Sequence record: PZ019084.1
From: a phage
Direction: 5' to 3' (one strand)
Length of the DNA: 64,000 bases
Below the pieces are notes generated by a model that was not told where the DNA came from, ran no database searches, and saw only the letters and a program-made list of their open reading frames with translations. Below are positions 2,104 to 46,565 of this stretch, in pieces (positions within the stretch are counted from its first letter, which is position 1; each line of letters starts with the position of its first letter). Both the position numbers and the translations under genes were made by a program.

Positions 2104-4800
2104 TCAGCCAAACAGGAAGTCTAACGAAGCTTTTTCTTCATAGTCCATACCCGCCGATTCACACATACCCGCAAGAGGTTTAACAAACGATTTTTGGAAC
2201 AAAGTTGAGTAGTCAATCCAAGACAGTACATCAGAACGAATTTCTTTTGGAAGTTCTGTGCCTGATGGCCAAGCAATGCACTTGTCACCAAATGGATTTC
2301 CTTCACGTAATGGAAGAACCATTACCTTATTTCCATCCAAAATTGGAGCTACACCTAAACCGCTAACAGCTCGACGATAAGTTAGCACACCACGAATATG
2401 GAACGGGCATTTAAATCCTGGCCAACCTTTATCGTCATATTTCGCTATATCGTTCGCAGTTTTTACTTCAGCAATAACTTTATAGTCAAGTTGACGATAT
2501 TCTTTCTCAAAGTTCTTGTAGTATTCTTGGACAGACTCTTCGCCTTCCTGAAGAATACGACGAATACTTTCTTCGAGAGCTTCTTGTACTGCTTTTGGCG
2601 TTGAACTCTGCTGAGTTTCCATACCCATGATTTTTAGATGCGGTTCAGCAAATCGCTTATCTTCCATATCATAAACGTTCAGAGCATAACGTTTTTTCGC
2701 TTTCCAAAATCCACCGACACCCTTTGAACCAAGCGGAGGGCAAGAAATAGCTTCACGGTCCATATGCATCAGATGCTCGCGGTTATTCATATAATCACAT
2801 AACTCACGATATGCAACATCAATCATAGGTTCCATCTTTTTCTTACCAAACTGATTCATGAATTCAACTAAATCATTTTGTTCTTTAAAGCGATCAAGAC
2901 CTACTTTTTCAATTACTTTATCTACACAAACATATACCGAATCAGTATCACCTGCTGCGATGAAATCTTCACCATTAGTTCCACATACTTTATTCAGATA
3001 TTCATTAATTTTGCGAGCAATCCACTGAATACCGACTTGACCGAAAATTGTGATAGCAGTAGCATTTCGCAAATCATAGTAACGGAAATGAATATTACCA
3101 AGAGCACCATAAAGACTGTTAATAAGAATTTTACGGTTCAGCTGATTTGTGTTAGCAAGTGTAGCAGCTTTTTCACATTCTTCAATCAGACTATTAAGAA
3201 CAGATTCAGTGTAATTCGACAATTCGTTTAAGAAATCATCACTGAACTTAACATATCGTTCAACTTCTGGTTTAGTTGGGCAAGACCCTGCACCTTTCAT
3301 AATAATCTTTTTAATAGCTTCGGCATTCATTTCTTCAGCGAACATTTTCTTTTTCCAATCTTTACGCTGGAAAAATACTTTAGCGATTTCCTTTGGAATG
3401 ATACCTTCTTGGTGCTTATCATACATCCATCCATTCGGAGAACAAGAATATTCATCACTTGGCTTAGGAGCTGTTCCTGCGATATATTCATGAATTGGAT
3501 GAACTTTAAACTGCCCGCGAATAGTCTCAGGACTAATGTTAACCTGACGAATAATGCTAGGATACAGAGACGTCAAGTCAAAACTCATAATGTATCGACG
3601 AGCAATCGGTTTAGGTTCAAACACAAATGCACCTGGAAAACTCTGTTTAACGTGCGAACCTTGTTGAGGAATAACCTTATGTTCACTTTTAAGTGAGTTA
3701 AAAATAATAGCATCCCAAGTTTTAATAGGACTCATTACACCAGAAAAAGGCATTTTAGCATAATAAGACATACTTAAAACTAGATCGATAAACCCACGAA
3801 TTTTATCAATTGCTTGAACTGATTCTACGTCAATGATGTTATAACTAATGTATCGTTGATGATTAGTCTCACGAAGTTTATTAATAGGACCATCGTACGG
3901 CAATTTACCTTTTTTGGTTTCATGCTGAGCAACTGATTCCAAAGAGAATGATGGCAAATTAGTAAATGCGAATTTCTTGTACAAATCTAAATAATCAAGA
4001 ATAGATACGCCATCAATCGAATAAATTTCTTTGCTACCGTACATATTTTGAATTAGTTTAGATTTTACTCGACCGATTGGAGAGAAGCGTTTCATACTGC
4101 GTTCACCGAGAACCATTTTAACACGATTCATGATATACGGAACGTCAAATCCCTCAATATTCCAACCGGTAAAAATAGCAGGTCGTTTCTGTTCCCAGAG
4201 ATTAATATATTCCATGAGCATATCACGCTCATTATCAAATGGCATATAAATTACTCGGTCAAGAATTTCTTGAGGAACTTCATCACCACCTTCACAGTCA
4301 AGCTTAGCAGCTAACTTTGCGTCCCATTTTGATACTGAACCGTACATTGAATTCAACAAATCAAAGACGTAAAAACGATCATCAATTGAATCATAATGAG
4401 TGATAGCATCAATTTCATATTCTGCTTTCATTGGGTCAGGAAATTTATCACCAGTAACCTCAATGTCACAGTTAGCTACACGAACAAATTTTCGGTCATA
4501 AACAATTTCTGAACCATATGTATCACTGATATAAGCGAGTTTAAAATCGTTCATACCGAGAGCTTCGAGACCGATGTCTTCCATTCGCTTCATCCAGTCT
4601 CGTGCATCTTTCATTGATGGAAATTTTTGAGGAGCACAGTTTTTACCATAAATGTCTTTGTATTTTGACTCTTCCTTACAATGTCTAAACATAGTCGGAA
4701 GATATTCTACTTCACGAGTACGTTCCTTTCCATTTTCATCAATATAACGCTCAACAATGTTATTTCCGACTGTTTCGATAGAGATATAAAATTCTTTCAT
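2104..4800 (-). CDS. 43: DNA polymerase (family B) with 3'-5' exonuclease
   Basis: 898 aa; exonuclease and polymerase motifs (e.g. AAGDTDSVYV); T4 gp43 length. Confidence 0.97.
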   Translation of the reverse strand: MKEFYISIETVGNNIVERYIDENGKERTREVEYLPTMFRHCKEESKYKDIYGKNCAPQKFPSMKDARDWMKRMEDIGLEALGMNDFKLAYISDTYGSEIVYDRKFVRVANCDIEVTGDKFPDPMKAEYEIDAITHYDSIDDRFYVFDLLNSMYGSVSKWDAKLAAKLDCEGGDEVPQEILDRVIYMPFDNERDMLMEYINLWEQKRPAIFTGWNIEGFDVPYIMNRVKMVLGERSMKRFSPIGRVKSKLIQNMYGSKEIYSIDGVSILDYLDLYKKFAFTNLPSFSLESVAQHETKKGKLPYDGPINKLRETNHQRYISYNIIDVESVQAIDKIRGFIDLVLSMSYYAKMPFSGVMSPIKTWDAIIFNSLKSEHKVIPQQGSHVKQSFPGAFVFEPKPIARRYIMSFDLTSLYPSIIRQVNISPETIRGQFKVHPIHEYIAGTAPKPSDEYSCSPNGWMYDKHQEGIIPKEIAKVFFQRKDWKKKMFAEEMNAEAIKKIIMKGAGSCPTKPEVERYVKFSDDFLNELSNYTESVLNSLIEECEKAATLANTNQLNRKILINSLYGALGNIHFRYYDLRNATAITIFGQVGIQWIARKINEYLNKVCGTNGEDFIAAGDTDSVYVCVDKVIEKVGLDRFKEQNDLVEFMNQFGKKKMEPMIDVAYRELCDYMNNREHLMHMDREAISCPPLGSKGVGGFWKAKKRYALNVYDMEDKRFAEPHLKIMGMETQQSSTPKAVQEALEESIRRILQEGEESVQEYYKNFEKEYRQLDYKVIAEVKTANDIAKYDDKGWPGFKCPFHIRGVLTYRRAVSGLGVAPILDGNKVMVLPLREGNPFGDKCIAWPSGTELPKEIRSDVLSWIDYSTLFQKSFVKPLAGMCESAGMDYEEKASLDFLFG

Positions 4801-38573: not shown

Positions 38574-39047
38574 TTATTTGAATGATTTGACGTACTGAAT
38601 AGAGCCTTTGCTATTCACGAAAGCGATTTTACCATTTTTATTATACATGGTAGCAGTACGCTGATAACCATAAGTTTGCTTACCAGATTGATAACCAACT
38701 AATGCAAAATTATCTTCACCCATTTTATTCTGTTTAGCGCGGATGCGTTCATGACCGTGTGCCATAAGAACCTTAGCGTCGCCAGTTGCAATGGATCTAC
38801 GAGTTTTTTCATCTTCAACTGTATTAACAAAATCGTCAAATGAATCAAATTTAGCATGGGATTTATTATACAGTTTTCCATCTACTGCATAATTATATCC
38901 TTGTACATCCATCTCAACTTCTGTACCGTCATCCAATACAGCAGTGATTTTTTGACCTTTTTTAAATTTCAAAAGATCAGTAAAAGATTCAGCAATAATT
39001 TGAGAATTAATAGCTGCTTCAGTAATAAATTCTTGGTATGTTTTCAT
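38574..39047 (-). CDS. capsid-targeted internal protein (157 aa)
   Basis: N-terminal capsid targeting sequence MKTYQEFITEA with prohead-protease site ITE/A. Confidence 0.7.
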   Translation of the reverse strand: MKTYQEFITEAAINSQIIAESFTDLLKFKKGQKITAVLDDGTEVEMDVQGYNYAVDGKLYNKSHAKFDSFDDFVNTVEDEKTRRSIATGDAKVLMAHGHERIRAKQNKMGEDNFALVGYQSGKQTYGYQRTATMYNKNGKIAFVNSKGSIQYVKSFK

Positions 39048-39153
39048 GTATATCCTTTAAATGTAAATAATTTTATTCTTTAAGTTTGGGACAATTCACA
39101 CATGAATTGTCCATTTCTGTATTTATCTATTACCGAGTTCGGACTTGGCTTTA

Positions 39154-39732
39154 TTAATTACCACGGGCTGCATTAGCAACGGCGTAAGCATACTGAACAT
39201 TAGCGTCCTTAAACGTACCTTTAGAGGTATCTATTTCTGCCTTAAAGCCGCCTTTAGCCATAACATCAGCAAATTCTTTACGGAAGGCCATTGCATCAAG
39301 ACCTTTCCATGATGATTTATGCTTGGCGAATTCAAGACCAGCGTAGTTGACAGCCTTAGCTAATTTATTATCAATAACCCATTTACCAGCTTTAGGCACA
39401 AACACCGGGCCTTTCTGTTTAGAGAATAGTTTTAAATTCCAGCGACGAAGGTCACCGTCAGCTTTAACAAAAGCTGCATCCAAGTTACTAGCAACAACAT
39501 CTTGAATATGGCCAAATTTAAGCCCATCAACTTCAATATTTAGATCAGTACGCCAGCGAAGTCCTTCCCAAGCGAAAGCTTTAAAGTCGGAAGCTTTTGT
39601 GGCTAGATATCGTTCAAGTGGAGCAGTTTTAGGGTCAAAGCCGTTTCCACCACGATAGTTCCACTCGTCCTTATTAATGCCTTTGGCCTTTTCCGCAGAA
39701 GCTTCAGCGATAAATTCTTTATACGTTTTCAT
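39154..39732 (-). CDS. capsid-targeted internal protein (192 aa, IPIII-like size)
   Basis: N-terminal MKTYKEFIAEA targeting sequence. Confidence 0.7.
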   Translation of the reverse strand: MKTYKEFIAEASAEKAKGINKDEWNYRGGNGFDPKTAPLERYLATKASDFKAFAWEGLRWRTDLNIEVDGLKFGHIQDVVASNLDAAFVKADGDLRRWNLKLFSKQKGPVFVPKAGKWVIDNKLAKAVNYAGLEFAKHKSSWKGLDAMAFRKEFADVMAKGGFKAEIDTSKGTFKDANVQYAYAVANAARGN

Positions 39733-43437: not shown

Positions 43438-43511
43438 TTATTTCTCCGTTTCTGTATTTGTTTTGATAAGTCTATAATAACACCATCCTTGGTGTTTGTA
43501 CATCATTATTT

Positions 43512-43844
43512 TTAATTTTTCCAACTTAACAACTTGTAGTGTCCTTCATTCATACGTGGTTTATCCCAAGAAATACTAATATATGATTCACTGTCAATAG
43601 AAGTCGCCGGGTTTTTCTCTACCGTAAGACCTTCACTTTCCAGCCATTCAATAGTATTTGCGCATAAATCGGAAGAACACCTCATCGGAAACCGGCAAGA
43701 TTTTTCACCTTTAGATGCAGCGTTATACATCTTTTCTAAAATACGCTTTTGCACGTTTTTAAAAATAGTTTCAGCGGATTCTTCAGATTTTTTATTCAGT
43801 TCAATATAAAGACTCATAACATTCTTCTCATTAATAGGGCTCAT
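43512..43844 (-). CDS. hypothetical protein (110 aa)
   Basis: Minus-strand ORF. Confidence 0.5.
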   Translation of the reverse strand: MSPINEKNVMSLYIELNKKSEESAETIFKNVQKRILEKMYNAASKGEKSCRFPMRCSSDLCANTIEWLESEGLTVEKNPATSIDSESYISISWDKPRMNEGHYKLLSWKN

Positions 43845-43872
43845 AATATCTCAATCATGAGCCTGTGTAAAC

Positions 43873-44148
43873 TTATTTCATATTATTGAAATATTCTTCT
43901 GCGATTTCGTCGTTATCATGGTAAACTTTAGAAGACAGTTTAACATAACCTTCAGCAGTGAACATGTTAATCACAACCTTTACAGTATACCACTGACCGT
44001 CTTCATTACCCATTACTGCGTAAGTTTCAAACATCGGATGGTCAGGACCGATAACTTTAATATCATTCACTGTACGACCGAAATCTTCTGAAACGCATTT
44101 CATAAAGAAGTTGAACAGTTCGCCGTAATTATCCATTTTATTCTCCAA
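43873..44148 (-). CDS. hypothetical protein (91 aa)
   Basis: ORF downstream of an early promoter. Confidence 0.5.
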   Translation of the reverse strand: MENKMDNYGELFNFFMKCVSEDFGRTVNDIKVIGPDHPMFETYAVMGNEDGQWYTVKVVINMFTAEGYVKLSSKVYHDNDEIAEEYFNNMK

Positions 44149-44168
44149 GTTGTTTTCAGTATCAGTAG

Positions 44169-44211
44169 TTGATAGTTGTATAGTACCATGGAAGAACAGA
44201 GATGTAAACCG
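44169..44211 (-). promoter_or_regulatory. T4-type early promoter
   Basis: GTTTAC (44209-44204); conserved core repeat. Confidence 0.6.
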
Positions 44212-44374
44212 TTTTGTGAAAAAATTTTAAAAATTTTTAGGGAATTCTAGGGCAGGGAGGGGCAATTAAAAGATAGGATAATATATTATAAAGGGTAGAA
44301 ACTAAATGATGCCTAGAGAGGTCCAGAAAGGCCTAGATGCCAAAAAGCCCTATCATTTAGATAGGGATTTAAAA

Positions 44375-44938
44375 TTATTTATCTAGTTTAGTTATTATAG
44401 CTTCTGCGGCAGCTTTTAGCTTAGATGCGGTGTTAATACGATTTTTAATTTCAGTATACGCATCGCCAAGAACATCAAGGCTATCAGAATAAACACTTAC
44501 ACTATTGCGTTCGCTATTTGAAATAGAACCTTTAGTTTTACGATCAAAATCGGTGTACACGTCTTGAAGATCACGGGCTGCCTTCTTTGCATCATCCAAT
44601 GCGTCAAGAGCTTTATTCAAAGCATTAACGTATTTTTTAGTGTCAAACATATTCTTAGAAATTTTAACAGGTGCGCGTTCAGGAGTAGCTAATGCAGATT
44701 TAGGAACCTGAGCGCCAGATGCCAATTTCTTAGAAATTTTGAAAAACGCTTTATTGAATTTATTTTCTTGACTCATCGTAAAAGAACTATTATCGATGTT
44801 GTACATTTCAATAGCTTTAGCTTTCCACTTAAGAAAATTGCCGCGGTCTTTTGGGTCCAAGTGGAAGAATACTTTAGTAAGATCTGCTTCAGATGGTAAT
44901 TTTGCTGCTTCGGTTAAAAATTCGGCATAGGTTTTCAT
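44375..44938 (-). CDS. capsid-targeted internal-protein-like protein (187 aa)
   Basis: N-terminal MKTYAEFLTEA targeting sequence. Confidence 0.65.
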   Translation of the reverse strand: MKTYAEFLTEAAKLPSEADLTKVFFHLDPKDRGNFLKWKAKAIEMYNIDNSSFTMSQENKFNKAFFKISKKLASGAQVPKSALATPERAPVKISKNMFDTKKYVNALNKALDALDDAKKAARDLQDVYTDFDRKTKGSISNSERNSVSVYSDSLDVLGDAYTEIKNRINTASKLKAAAEAIITKLDK

Positions 44939-45033
44939 TTAAAATCCTTGAAATAATTTATCAGTTGGTTATTAATTATTTATTACTTTGTTATTATCCG
45001 TAACAGCATTCTCTATGTGATTCAAACTAAAAA

Positions 45034-45055
45034 GCCCCAACCTTTCGGTCGGGGC
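45034..45055 (-). terminator. intrinsic terminator (GNRA-loop hairpin plus U-tract)
   Basis: gccccaacc-tttc-ggtcggggc preceded on the plus strand by aaaaa (U-tract on the minus-strand RNA). Confidence 0.6.
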
Positions 45056-45063
45056 TAAGAATG

Positions 45064-45537
45064 TTATTTGATTTGTTTAGCAGACCAAATGCGGTCTTTA
45101 ATAATTTTTTGGATGTCTTCAACATACTCAAGAGAGTGAACATGTGGATTATCTTTGAAACTATAAGCACGGGCTAACTTTTGGCCTTCGGTTTTGATTA
45201 CTAAAAGCTCTTTAAGGATAGCTTCATATTTAGCGATAATTCCTTTAACGATATTTTTTTCTTGTGCAGCTTTAGGATCTGCTTTAGGAGCAGGTTTACC
45301 CGAAGCCTTTGCAAAAGCAGCACCAGTAGCAACTAAACTTTTCCAGGCCATACTAACCGCATTTCCCGTAAATCCTTCTGCTTTCATGTCGCGAGCAAAT
45401 TGGAATCGTGATTCGTCAGAAGCATCTTTATAGGAATATTTACCCGCTGCAATGGCTGCTTTTGCGACAGCTTGAATTTCGGTGCTAGATGCTTCATTTA
45501 ACACCGCTTCATTTAAAAATTGAGCATATGATTTCAT
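45064..45537 (-). CDS. capsid-targeted internal-protein-like protein (157 aa)
   Basis: N-terminal MKSYAQFLNEA targeting sequence; flanked by direct-repeat terminators. Confidence 0.65.
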   Translation of the reverse strand: MKSYAQFLNEAVLNEASSTEIQAVAKAAIAAGKYSYKDASDESRFQFARDMKAEGFTGNAVSMAWKSLVATGAAFAKASGKPAPKADPKAAQEKNIVKGIIAKYEAILKELLVIKTEGQKLARAYSFKDNPHVHSLEYVEDIQKIIKDRIWSAKQIK

Positions 45538-45592
45538 CTTATTTCCTGTTTTAATTCGTAGATTTAATATACTACTATATTTATACTAAAAA

Positions 45593-45614
45593 GCCCCGAC
45601 CTTTCGGTCGGGGC
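45593..45614 (-). terminator. intrinsic terminator (GNRA-loop hairpin plus U-tract)
   Basis: gccccgacc-tttc-ggtcggggc; direct repeat of the element at 45034-45055. Confidence 0.6.
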
Positions 45615-45926
45615 TAAGCCTTGCGGCAACCTTGTCGGGGTTCCACCTGCTAAGGCAAGTGTTTGTACGAAACGCCGGGATTCGAACCCGGTTATTAAGC
45701 AGTTGACGCTACTCAATATTTTTAAAAGGCCATATCTCGACCATATCCGAACGTTCCGTCAAAAACGCTACTCGGCTTACGGCAAAGATATTTCCTCGAA
45801 TCGATAATTCTGTGCGCCGTTTCTGCTGTGATGTAAGGGGACATTAACAGATCGTAAAGATTTGTTAATGCCAGTCCTTACCCAGGGAACATCAGTCCGA
45901 CGACTTACCGGTAGCGACCCGGTTTC
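45615..45926 (-). ncRNA. putative small stable RNA(s) co-transcribed with the tRNA cluster (candidate T4 RNA C/D-type species)
   Basis: About 310 nt with no ORF, GC-rich against an AT-rich genome, tRNA-like T-arm CCGGGTTCGAATCCCGG on the minus strand, terminated by the hairpin at 45593-45614. Confidence 0.4.
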
Positions 45927-46277
45927 TTAATATTCTTTTAAAGCATTAATCTGTTCACGACGTTTACGCCATAAATCAATTACTTCATACGCAGATTCAG
46001 CATTTCGAATTGGACGGCATTTATATAAAGACTTATGATTTTGATATTGTGTAGATAACGGAATTTTATCTAAAAGGTCTTTACGTTCAAAGTATTCGTA
46101 ACCATCTAAGCCAAATGAACGATTTTTGAGAAATTGCCAATGACCAAATTCGTTTTGAATATAAATATAATCCGCGTGTTGATAAAGTAAATTAATTTCA
46201 CGAAATGAGATATGTTTTTCATATTCATTGAAGTAAAATGTTAAATCATGAACTACTAAATAAACATTACCTTTCAT
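45927..46277 (-). CDS. hypothetical protein (116 aa)
   Basis: ORF between tRNA-Arg and the structured RNA region. Confidence 0.5.
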   Translation of the reverse strand: MKGNVYLVVHDLTFYFNEYEKHISFREINLLYQHADYIYIQNEFGHWQFLKNRSFGLDGYEYFERKDLLDKIPLSTQYQNHKSLYKCRPIRNAESAYEVIDLWRKRREQINALKEY

Positions 46278-46295
46278 ATTTTCCTCACTTATAAT

Positions 46296-46371
46296 TGGTC
46301 GAGGCAGTAGGGATCGAACCTACGACCTAGGACTTAGAAGGTCCTTGCTCTTCCTTCTGAGCTATGCCCCG
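46296..46371 (-). tRNA. tRNA-Arg: tRNA-Arg (anticodon UCU)
   Basis: Manual cloverleaf: acceptor CGGGGCA/TGCCTCG, anticodon loop CTTCTAA, T-loop TTCGATC, CCA encoded. Confidence 0.88.
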
Positions 46372-46375
46372 TAAT

Positions 46376-46451
46376 TGGGGTGACCGATGGGAGTCGAACC
46401 CATGACTACGAGAATCACAATCTCGAGTTCTACCAACTGAACTACGGCCAC
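46376..46451 (-). tRNA. tRNA-His: tRNA-His (anticodon GUG)
   Basis: Manual cloverleaf: acceptor GTGGCCG/CGGTCAC, anticodon loop TTGTGAT, CCA encoded; no encoded G-1. Confidence 0.8.
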
Positions 46452-46565
46452 ATTAATACCTACTCCAACAATCAAGATGTCTTCACACGAAATTAAGAGA
46501 AGAGTGATCAGTTCAACCCCTATAATCGCGTCAAGTAGATATTAATGTGACAGTTGTCACAAATT

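Follow-up and report, generated by a model that had tools for sequence, protein, structure and literature searches.

The window analyzed here, a stretch of 64,000 nucleotides from sequence record PZ019084.1 of a Tequatrovirus, contains two neighboring genes, IP-like-1 and IP-like-2, whose products begin with a leader of the kind that directs the internal proteins (IPs) of phage T4 into the capsid. We consider it likely that these genes mark a third locus of internal-protein type in T4-like phages, a polymorphic one that is flanked by the terminator of the tRNA/rnaC-rnaD operon on one side and by the e.8 early promoter on the other. Cassette 2 consists of a hairpin terminator, the late promoter TATAAATA, a Shine-Dalgarno (SD) sequence, IP-like-2, and a second copy of the hairpin, and cassette 1 consists of a spacer with a possible variant late promoter, an SD sequence, IP-like-1, and a terminator of its own. 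Genes with such leaders occupy this third locus in about three quarters of the database records that contain the e.8 flank; T2, T4, and T6 are empty here, which is probably why the locus has been overlooked.

Ip genes have been described as lying in two loci (PMC12373910), and the genes named Ip4-Ip7 in the GenBank annotations of PST, T6, and T2 are all found in these two classical loci. Counting the present site as a third rests on these annotations and on the cited paper, and the site may have been noticed earlier. As the leader, the deeply conserved cleavage motif, and the basic charge of the proteins point in the same direction as the late promoter of IP-like-2, both proteins are most likely additional internal proteins. 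By sequence, the site would thus be a further Ip locus with a new candidate IP family, that is, a new case of a kind of system that is already known, in which IP genes of hyperplastic loci are shuffled by way of regulatory repeats at their flanks.

Capsid-targeting leaders and the family of the two proteins

In T4, the capsid-targeting sequence (CTS) MKTYQEFIAE suffices to package foreign proteins into heads and is cleaved once (PMC8442874). The single cleavage that removes the CTS follows an [L/I]xE site rule, as described with IPI* (PMC3012670), and in our hands this rule also yields the 76-residue IPI*. The initial annotation, which had been made from the letters of the DNA, had placed two genes at 44375-44938 and 45064-45537 and had assigned their N-termini, MKTYAEFLTEA and MKSYAQFLNEA, to the targeting consensus. 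Minus-strand open reading frames (ORFs) are indeed present at exactly these coordinates, and both N-termini fit the CTS followed by the cleavage motif of the prohead protease gp21: they resemble MKTYQEFIAE and end in an [L/I]-x-E| site, two sequence features of T4-type internal proteins. With the strict pattern M[KR][ST][YF]xxF[ILVM]xE, a six-frame translation of the window gave four matches, all four at the starts of ORFs (IP-like-1, IP-like-2, and the ipIII and ipIV genes at 38574-39732), and 400 shuffled sequences gave none.

IP-like-1 has a single [L/I]xE site, LTE|A at residues 8-10, as do IPII and IPIII of T4. IP-like-2 has LNE|A at residues 8-10 and again at 13-15, as well as one internal LKE at 108. 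This tandem duplication of the cleavage motif (FLNE-A-VLNE-A) lies within the first 15 codons (45493-45537, minus strand), and shorter alleles of 153 and 154 amino acids have one cleavage site. The residue that is invariant across the family is E15 of the second site, not E10. The leader and the E|A/S site are conserved in family members of only 30-40% identity. Among the sampled genera, the leader with its acidic cleavage residue is kept even where identity is 26-40%, and in these same proteins the adjacent sequence beyond the leader diverges and carries indels. The isoelectric point (pI) of both mature proteins, 9.5, compares with 9.56 for IPII and 9.65 for IPIII. The ratio of nonsynonymous to synonymous substitution rates (dN/dS) is 0.09-0.21 for IP-like-1 and 0.02-0.09 for IP-like-2, and purifying selection acts on both genes. 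Their GC content is typical of the genome, and each is preceded by an SD sequence (AAGGA at 44945-44949 for IP-like-1, AGGAAA at 45542-45547 for IP-like-2).

Both proteins match phrog_2280, a family with unassigned function, over their full length (E = 6e-53 for IP-like-1 and 2e-60 for IP-like-2), and the matches stay when the CTS is removed (4.5e-46 and 3.5e-52). T4 IPI, IPII, IPIII, and the IpIV-type protein belong to four other PHROGs that are labeled internal virion protein. Sequence searches of Pfam, NCBIfam, and PDB gave nothing meaningful for either protein, and direct comparison of IP-like-1 with IP-like-2 by BLASTP and hhalign revealed little beyond the leader. As there is so little direct similarity, paralogy is argued via phrog_2280, orf135 of the Dhakavirus JS98, the 204-amino-acid bridge protein P0043, and a common topology. 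JS98 orf135 also matches phrog_2280, aligns with the IP-like-2 family, and aligns end to end with IP-like-1 (26% identity, E = 7e-4). An exhaustive HMMER search with mature IP-like-1 returned only near-identical proteins or fragments, P0043, and one marginal match to a 2561-amino-acid protein. The AlphaFold models of the two proteins, with mean predicted local distance difference test (pLDDT) values of 60.7 and 73.9, have the same predicted order of elements, namely a leader helix (residues 4-11), a domain of three helices, a Pro/Lys-rich linker that is disordered, and a long hairpin of helices. As judged from these comparisons, IP-like-1 and IP-like-2 are distant paralogues in the phage-only family phrog_2280. 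Foldseek searches of PDB and BFVD found only members of this family, everything else having E > 1, so that the function cannot be read from the fold.

No close relatives of IP-like-1 were found among 5.8 billion proteins. IP-like-2 was detected in 512 records by tblastn, including Dhakavirus and Jiaodavirus, and phages of Tegunavirus and Jiaodavirus have relatives whose identity goes down to about 35-55%. In the named cluster members listed and in all sampled records, the proteins are labeled 'hypothetical protein' or 'phage protein', and in the searchable literature we found no mention of them by N-terminus or ORF name. Two metagenomic chimeras involve the cassette genes: in P0028, a trna.3-like N-terminus is followed by the final 28 residues of IP-like-2, and in P0039, residues 97-122 of IP-like-1 are linked to NudE. 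They imply either large deletions that end inside cassette genes or assembly artifacts.

Duplicated terminators, late-promoter box, and the polymorphism of the locus

IP-like-2 lies between two direct repeats. The 31-nt pattern AAAAAGCCCCRACCTTTCGGTCGGGGCTAAG occurs exactly twice in the 64 kb (45029-45059 and 45588-45618), with no occurrence expected, and with 93% identity the two copies can be followed over 40 nt. The initial annotation was right about flanking repeat copies, but its boundaries (45028-45063 and 45583-45620) were a few bases too wide; the copies lie at 45020-45059 and 45579-45618. On the transcribed strand, both have the layout CTT-AGCCCCGACC-GAAA-GGT(C/T)GGGGCT-TTTTT, that is, a 10-bp G+C-rich stem, a GAAA loop of the GNRA type, and a TTTTT tract, at -20.4 kcal/mol (copy b, 45020-45059) and -22.4 kcal/mol (copy a, 45579-45618). 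The two copies thus have the features of intrinsic (rho-independent) terminators, in agreement with the GNRA-loop terminator hairpins proposed initially, and terminators were annotated at both positions by the depositors of phage G50 as well. The identity of the copies runs past the stem to bases that are not paired, namely CTT at its 5' end and TTTTTAGT.T.AAT at its 3' end, and the 3' flank of copy b, AGTTTGAAT, resembles a decayed copy of the late-promoter box AGTATAAAT. Copy a and the one hairpin that T4 has 3' of rnaC are orthologous; copy a follows rnaC after about 46 nt, as in T4, and differs from the T4 hairpin in one stem base (GGTC for GGTT). IP-like-1 is not bracketed by the identical repeat and has its own terminator (terminator 3), which is unrelated to the repeat hairpins and whose GGGCTTTTT end is the microhomology at the insertion junction of cassette 1. 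This third terminator and the distant paralogy of the two genes go beyond the initial annotation.

The interval between e.8 and rnaC exists in an empty, a one-cassette, and a two-cassette state. In T4 the gap measures 284 bp, contains no gene, in line with the statement of the initial annotation that T4 has no IP genes in this region, and has a single hairpin. In T2, T6, and PST the interval is likewise gene-free with one hairpin. The outcome that had been named as speaking against a cassette, the same arrangement in all T-even genomes including T4, is therefore not observed. The one-cassette state, with hairpin plus TATAAATA, IP-like-2, and hairpin, is found in RB33 and at two further loci (L004 and L006), and the window, G50, L005, L007, and L011 have both genes. 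The junctions are precise. T4 reads rnaC-flank[hairpin]e.8-flank and RB33 reads rnaC-flank[hairpin]agtataaata...IP-like-2...cattctt[hairpin]e.8-flank, so that removal of exactly one repeat-to-repeat unit of late promoter, gene, and hairpin turns the RB33 arrangement into that of T4, with both flanks retained; the breakpoints of presence and absence therefore lie exactly at the repeats that had been suggested to delimit the cassette. In the window, the RB33 arrangement is supplemented by a segment that is inserted after GGGGCTTTTT and ends in GGGCTTTTT, the junction of cassette 1 being a 9-nt GGGCTTTTT microhomology at the terminator ends. The locus is polymorphic, and its breakpoints coincide with the hairpin for cassette 2 and with the GGGCTTTTT microhomology for cassette 1. 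The GACC and AGCC variants of the hairpin occupy opposite positions in RB33 and L004, as expected if hairpin copies exchange.

Among phage records, the e.8 flank was found in 545, IP-like-2 DNA in 403, and IP-like-1 in 165 (164 of them at least 95% identical; only near-identical copies exist), counts that take in redundant database entries. About 74% of the e.8-flank records are occupied, so that the occupied state is the commoner one in the databases and the model phages are the exceptions.

The T4 late-promoter consensus lies at -13 to -6 (PMC1524935). The TATAAATA box, which directly follows hairpin a, is located about 40 nt before the ATG of IP-like-2 and is the sole minus-strand TATAAATA in 43500-46400. 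Its pairing with the hairpin is kept in two genera, namely in RB33, G50, L004-L006, L011, JS98 (twice), and EcoM_005. For IP-like-1, the candidate is the variant AATAAATA, one of only three minus-strand occurrences of this sequence in the window; T4-like late promoters tolerate A/T at -13 (PMC1524935). No strong sigma-70-type site was found at the repeats; there is only a weak 9/12 match (ATCACA-17-GATAAT, 45021-44993) just 3' of copy b.

In Dhakavirus, the same type of hairpin (AGGCCCTTCC-GAAA-GGTTGGGCCT) together with TATAAATA brackets shuffled cargo. The order in JS98 is hairpin plus late promoter, orf136 (184 amino acids, membrane-like, phrog_2143), again hairpin plus late promoter, and orf135 (205 amino acids, MKTYNEFLNESVLNEA). 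In vB_EcoM_005, hairpin plus late promoter are followed by a 157-amino-acid CTS gene, the 184-amino-acid ORF, and a hairpin, and IME341 has a 154-amino-acid CTS gene only. The 184-amino-acid membrane-like ORF (MKLLKYLSWILLVPLDF..., no CTS) is an alternative cargo of the Dhakavirus hairpin and late-promoter module. In the Tequatrovirus phiE142 (L007, 4542-5082), the 154-amino-acid allele (MKSYAEFLTEQSS) is Dhakavirus-like, its hairpin is a hybrid (CCCCTTCC), and an exact TATAAATA is missing, which suggests that a cassette and its hairpin were exchanged between genera. In Jiaodavirus KpV477, the homologue of IP-like-2 is located just 3' of the tRNA cluster. In this Klebsiella phage (L017, 3341-3731) it is annotated as two short overlapping coding sequences (165 and 237 nt), unlike the intact 177-amino-acid protein of Klebsiella phage KP01, and may be a frameshifted gene or a pseudogene. 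In a scan of IMG/VR, the hairpin plus TATAAATA module was found in this form only at the present locus and once per contig, which led us to abandon the notion of a mobile regulatory element that is dispersed in the genome.

Surroundings of the locus

Within 2.6 kb around the locus, Shigella phage KRT47, SH-1, and Citrobacter phage CrRp10 match the window at 97% identity, and part of this 2.6-kb region is common to 778 phage records. All genes of the locus are on the minus strand, and the order of transcription is tRNA cluster, 116-amino-acid ORF, rnaD, rnaC, IP-like-2, IP-like-1, and e.8 (Table 1). The stable RNAs rnaC and rnaD form the conserved upstream flank; Rfam has no family for either of them or for the hairpin. 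On the downstream side, e.8 has a dN/dS of 0.05 in comparison to T4.

Table 1. Features of the locus and its surroundings; positions refer to the window unless another locus is named.
Feature	Position	Strand	Remarks
tRNA cluster	47317-46296	minus	11 tRNAs
116-aa (amino acid) ORF (phrog_3355)	46277-45927	minus	between rnaD and tRNA-Arg
rnaD	45812-45927	minus	stable RNA; 103/115 identical to annotated T4 rnaD
rnaC	45666-45804	minus	stable RNA, 3' end of tRNA operon; 137/139 identical to annotated T4 rnaC
Repeat copy a	45579..45618; hairpin 45592-45615	minus	AGCCCCGACC-GAAA-GGTCGGGGCT + TTTTT; -22.4 kcal/mol, z = -4.7
Late promoter box of IP-like-2	45578..45585	minus	canonical T4 late box TATAAATA, right after hairpin a as AG-TATAAATA
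IP-like-2 gene	45064..45537	minus	157 aa; leader MKSYAQFLNE|AVLNE|A; predicted mature protein ~16 kDa, pI 9.5
Repeat copy b	45020..45059; hairpin 45033-45056	minus	AGCCCCGACC-GAAA-GGTTGGGGCT + TTTTT; -20.4 kcal/mol, z = -4.5
Candidate variant late promoter of IP-like-1	44977..44984	minus	AATAAATA, in 90-nt spacer between hairpin b and IP-like-1; weak evidence
IP-like-1 gene	44375..44938	minus	187 aa; leader MKTYAEFLTE|A; predicted mature protein ~19.7 kDa, pI 9.5
Terminator 3 (HP_c)	44343..44366; stem-loop 44348-44366	minus	CCCTATC-TAAAT-GATAGGG + CTTTTT, 3' of IP-like-1; -10.5 kcal/mol, z = -2.1
e.8 upstream spacer	44137..44341	minus	205 nt; 192/206 identical to T4 hairpin-to-e.8 spacer
e.8 early promoter (promoter-like site)	-35 44203-44208; -10 44180-44185	minus	-35 TTTACA; TG-extended -10 TACTAT; 17-nt gap
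e.8	43873..44136	minus	87 aa from ATG; phrog_2678, E 3e-56; corresponds to T4 e.8; conserved downstream flank
ipIII / IpIV-type genes	38574-39047 and 39154-39732	minus	
184-aa ORF of Dhakavirus	L018 (JS98) 3419-3973; L019 2019-2573		before CTS gene in JS98, after it in vB_EcoM_005

Some further features of the region differ from T4. The window has 11 tRNAs in comparison to 8 in T4, with His, Asn, Tyr, and Met being extra and Ile being absent. A gap of 114 nt between tRNA-His and tRNA-Asn (46452-46565) gave no tRNA or Rfam call, and the rest of the array is densely packed. The 116-amino-acid ORF lies between rnaD and tRNA-Arg, which are adjacent in T4, and the same ORF is present in T2. The gene segB is absent from the window. 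At the classical ipII/ipIII locus, the window has a 157-amino-acid IpIV-type gene (phrog_3155, as in PST) at the ipII position, beside an ipIII homologue.

Weighing of the explanations and comparison with known systems

According to the favored explanation, both proteins would be made late and bound to the prohead scaffolding core through their leader of about ten residues, which gp21 would then cut off after LTE or LNE. The basic mature proteins of about 16 and 20 kDa would stay in the head and be injected with the DNA. Since Ip1-3 are injected, specific inhibitors of distinct GmrSD type IV restriction enzymes (PMC12373910, PMC9391042), the new proteins would, by analogy, probably neutralize a host defense. 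The direct repeats at the terminators would provide short homology for the phage recombination system, by which cassettes could be lost (the state of T4, T2, and T6), regained, or exchanged, even between genera, with neighboring transcription units left undisturbed. Flanking repeats with terminator and promoter are known to drive modular shuffling in T4-type phages, and homology of less than 50 bp is usable (PMC2839356). The exact junctions fit such a repeat-shuffling mechanism, with a late instead of an early promoter.

Several points weigh against this explanation. No report of either protein in virions, cleaved, or injected was found in the searchable literature, and IP-like-2 is conserved and not hypervariable, unlike an arms-race effector. 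Classical ip genes reportedly have a conserved 5' promoter and translation-initiation region, the Repoila motif. Within the upstream 100 nt, T4 ipII/ipIII and ipIII/ipIV of the window have a common ...ATTTAAAGGAAACA(T/C)ATG together with early-promoter boxes, and neither element is present in the corresponding 100 nt of IP-like-1 or IP-like-2. A canonical late promoter is absent upstream of IP-like-1, which has only the variant AATAAATA; this variant is invariant in five loci, but the spacer as a whole is 96% identical and thus too conserved to be informative. The box TATAAATA alone is not over-represented in the AT-rich window (13 observed, about 16 in shuffles). As for the paralogy, hhalign gave IP-like-1 versus IP-like-2 a weak probability of 25%, and the argument includes a topology taken from models of modest confidence (pLDDT 61 and 74). 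Finally, the record counts are redundant, and the event may have been a gain and not a loss.

The last point concerns an explanation that we regard as possible, although rather unlikely, namely that the empty state of T4, T2, and T6 is ancestral for Tequatrovirus and that the cassettes came in through recombination, hairpin x hairpin or at the GGGCTTTTT microhomology, with a donor genome or an excised mini-circle, as proposed for the promoter-early stem-loop (PeSL) cassettes; a mini-circle mechanism is documented for RB49/phi1 (PMC2839356). IP-like-1 does look recently acquired, with its 165 near-uniform records and no close relatives, and the Dhaka-like allele of phiE142 with its hybrid hairpin points to import. 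However, Dhakavirus and Jiaodavirus also have genes of the IP-like-2 family at this position, and their divergence roughly tracks the genera (synonymous divergence, dS, of 1.35 versus EcoM_005), which indicates that presence at the locus is old, and most e.8-flank records are occupied. As this position harbors the family in Tequatrovirus, Dhakavirus, and Jiaodavirus alike, loss in the T4, T2, and T6 lineages is favored over gain, and the empty T4-type state more probably arose by deletion than represents the ancestral condition. We see less merit in the view that the leader is only a shared relic, such as a recombination linker or a translation-initiation region, and that the proteins, neither packaged nor injected, are late proteins of the ordinary cytoplasmic kind. 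The missing virion reports, the 5' regulatory regions that differ from those of classical ip genes, the conservation of the family, and the fact that the annotators of RB14/RB32, like those of all other sampled records, used no Ip name would suit this view. It is nevertheless improbable, as it does not agree with the retention of leader and acidic cleavage residue at 26-40% identity next to diverging sequence, with the ability of the CTS alone to package foreign proteins in T4 (PMC8442874), with a basic character like that of IPII and IPIII, or with the presence of a late promoter.

It is still less probable that the hairpins are alike through constraint only and that illegitimate recombination, or co-conversion near the SegB homing site in the vicinity, produced the indels without repeat-mediated exchange. 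Terminators are functionally constrained, the cassette-1 junction is merely a 9-nt microhomology, and T4 SegB favors the inheritance of the tRNA region, according to a title cited in PMC4122927. Constraint on the stem, however, does not account for a repeat identity that passes into unpaired flanks over 40 nt, for T4/RB33 junctions that lie exactly at the repeat with each flank retained, or for variant bases that are swapped between positions in RB33 and L004. Nor does segB track the state of the locus: T4 is segB-positive and empty, RB33 is segB-positive and occupied, and the window is segB-negative and occupied, and the cassettes contain no endonuclease gene. As each cassette contains only its IP-like ORF, with no nuclease match in Pfam, NCBIfam, or PHROG, and as segB does not track the state, a cassette driven by a homing endonuclease was rejected.

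We keep to a third internal-protein-type locus as the likely reading. If the proteins are packaged, they would be ready candidates for new injected anti-defense factors, and routine annotation would have to be corrected. The locus also illustrates, in compact and natural form, how cassettes are gained and lost at duplicated terminators. In a more far-reaching scenario, which we put forward only tentatively, phrog_2280 might comprise injected effectors packaged in the capsid, a class so far unrecognized but conserved widely, which would be encoded at a third Ip locus lost by T2, T4, and T6 and would counter a defense other than the GmrSD variants blocked by Ip1-3, and hairpin plus TATAAATA might be the late-promoter counterpart of PeSLs that moves cassettes within and between genera of the Tevenvirinae.

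With IPI-III of T4 and Ip4-Ip7, the present system shares a leader of about ten residues that resembles MKTYQEFIAE and has an [L/I]xE|A site, small basic mature proteins without relation to cellular proteins, and genes that are non-essential, vary in their presence, and lie in a hyperplastic region between genes with regulatory signals of their own. It differs in location, since the known Ip loci are denV-e and 57B-tRNA and the IP-like genes lie between rnaC and e.8, and its proteins have no sequence similarity to the IPI, IPII, IPIII, or IpIV families. Whereas classical ip genes have an early promoter and the translation-initiation region, the 5' region here is a late promoter directly after a terminator, and in contrast to classical Ip proteins, the family is conserved across genera and not hypervariable, its packaging being deduced from sequence features.

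The likeness to PeSL cassettes (PMC2839356, PMC4122927) lies in a terminator stem-loop and promoter repeated on both sides of accessory ORFs, in a stem of the GGGG...CCCC type, in transcriptionally insulated cassettes, and in indel boundaries between close relatives at the motif. Here, accessory ORFs lie next to the motif, which coincides with the boundaries of indels at the T4, RB33, and window junctions and in the Dhakavirus arrangements. PeSLs, however, have a sigma-70-like early promoter and are dispersed in hyperplastic regions, whereas the promoter here is a gp55-type late box, TATAAATA, and the hairpin plus TATAAATA motif is locus-specific. Lastly, the terminator of the T4 tRNA operon 3' of rnaC (species 1 RNA) is the orthologue of copy a at the same position; in T4 this terminator is single and directly followed by the e.8 spacer, whereas the window has it in two copies and joined to a late promoter.

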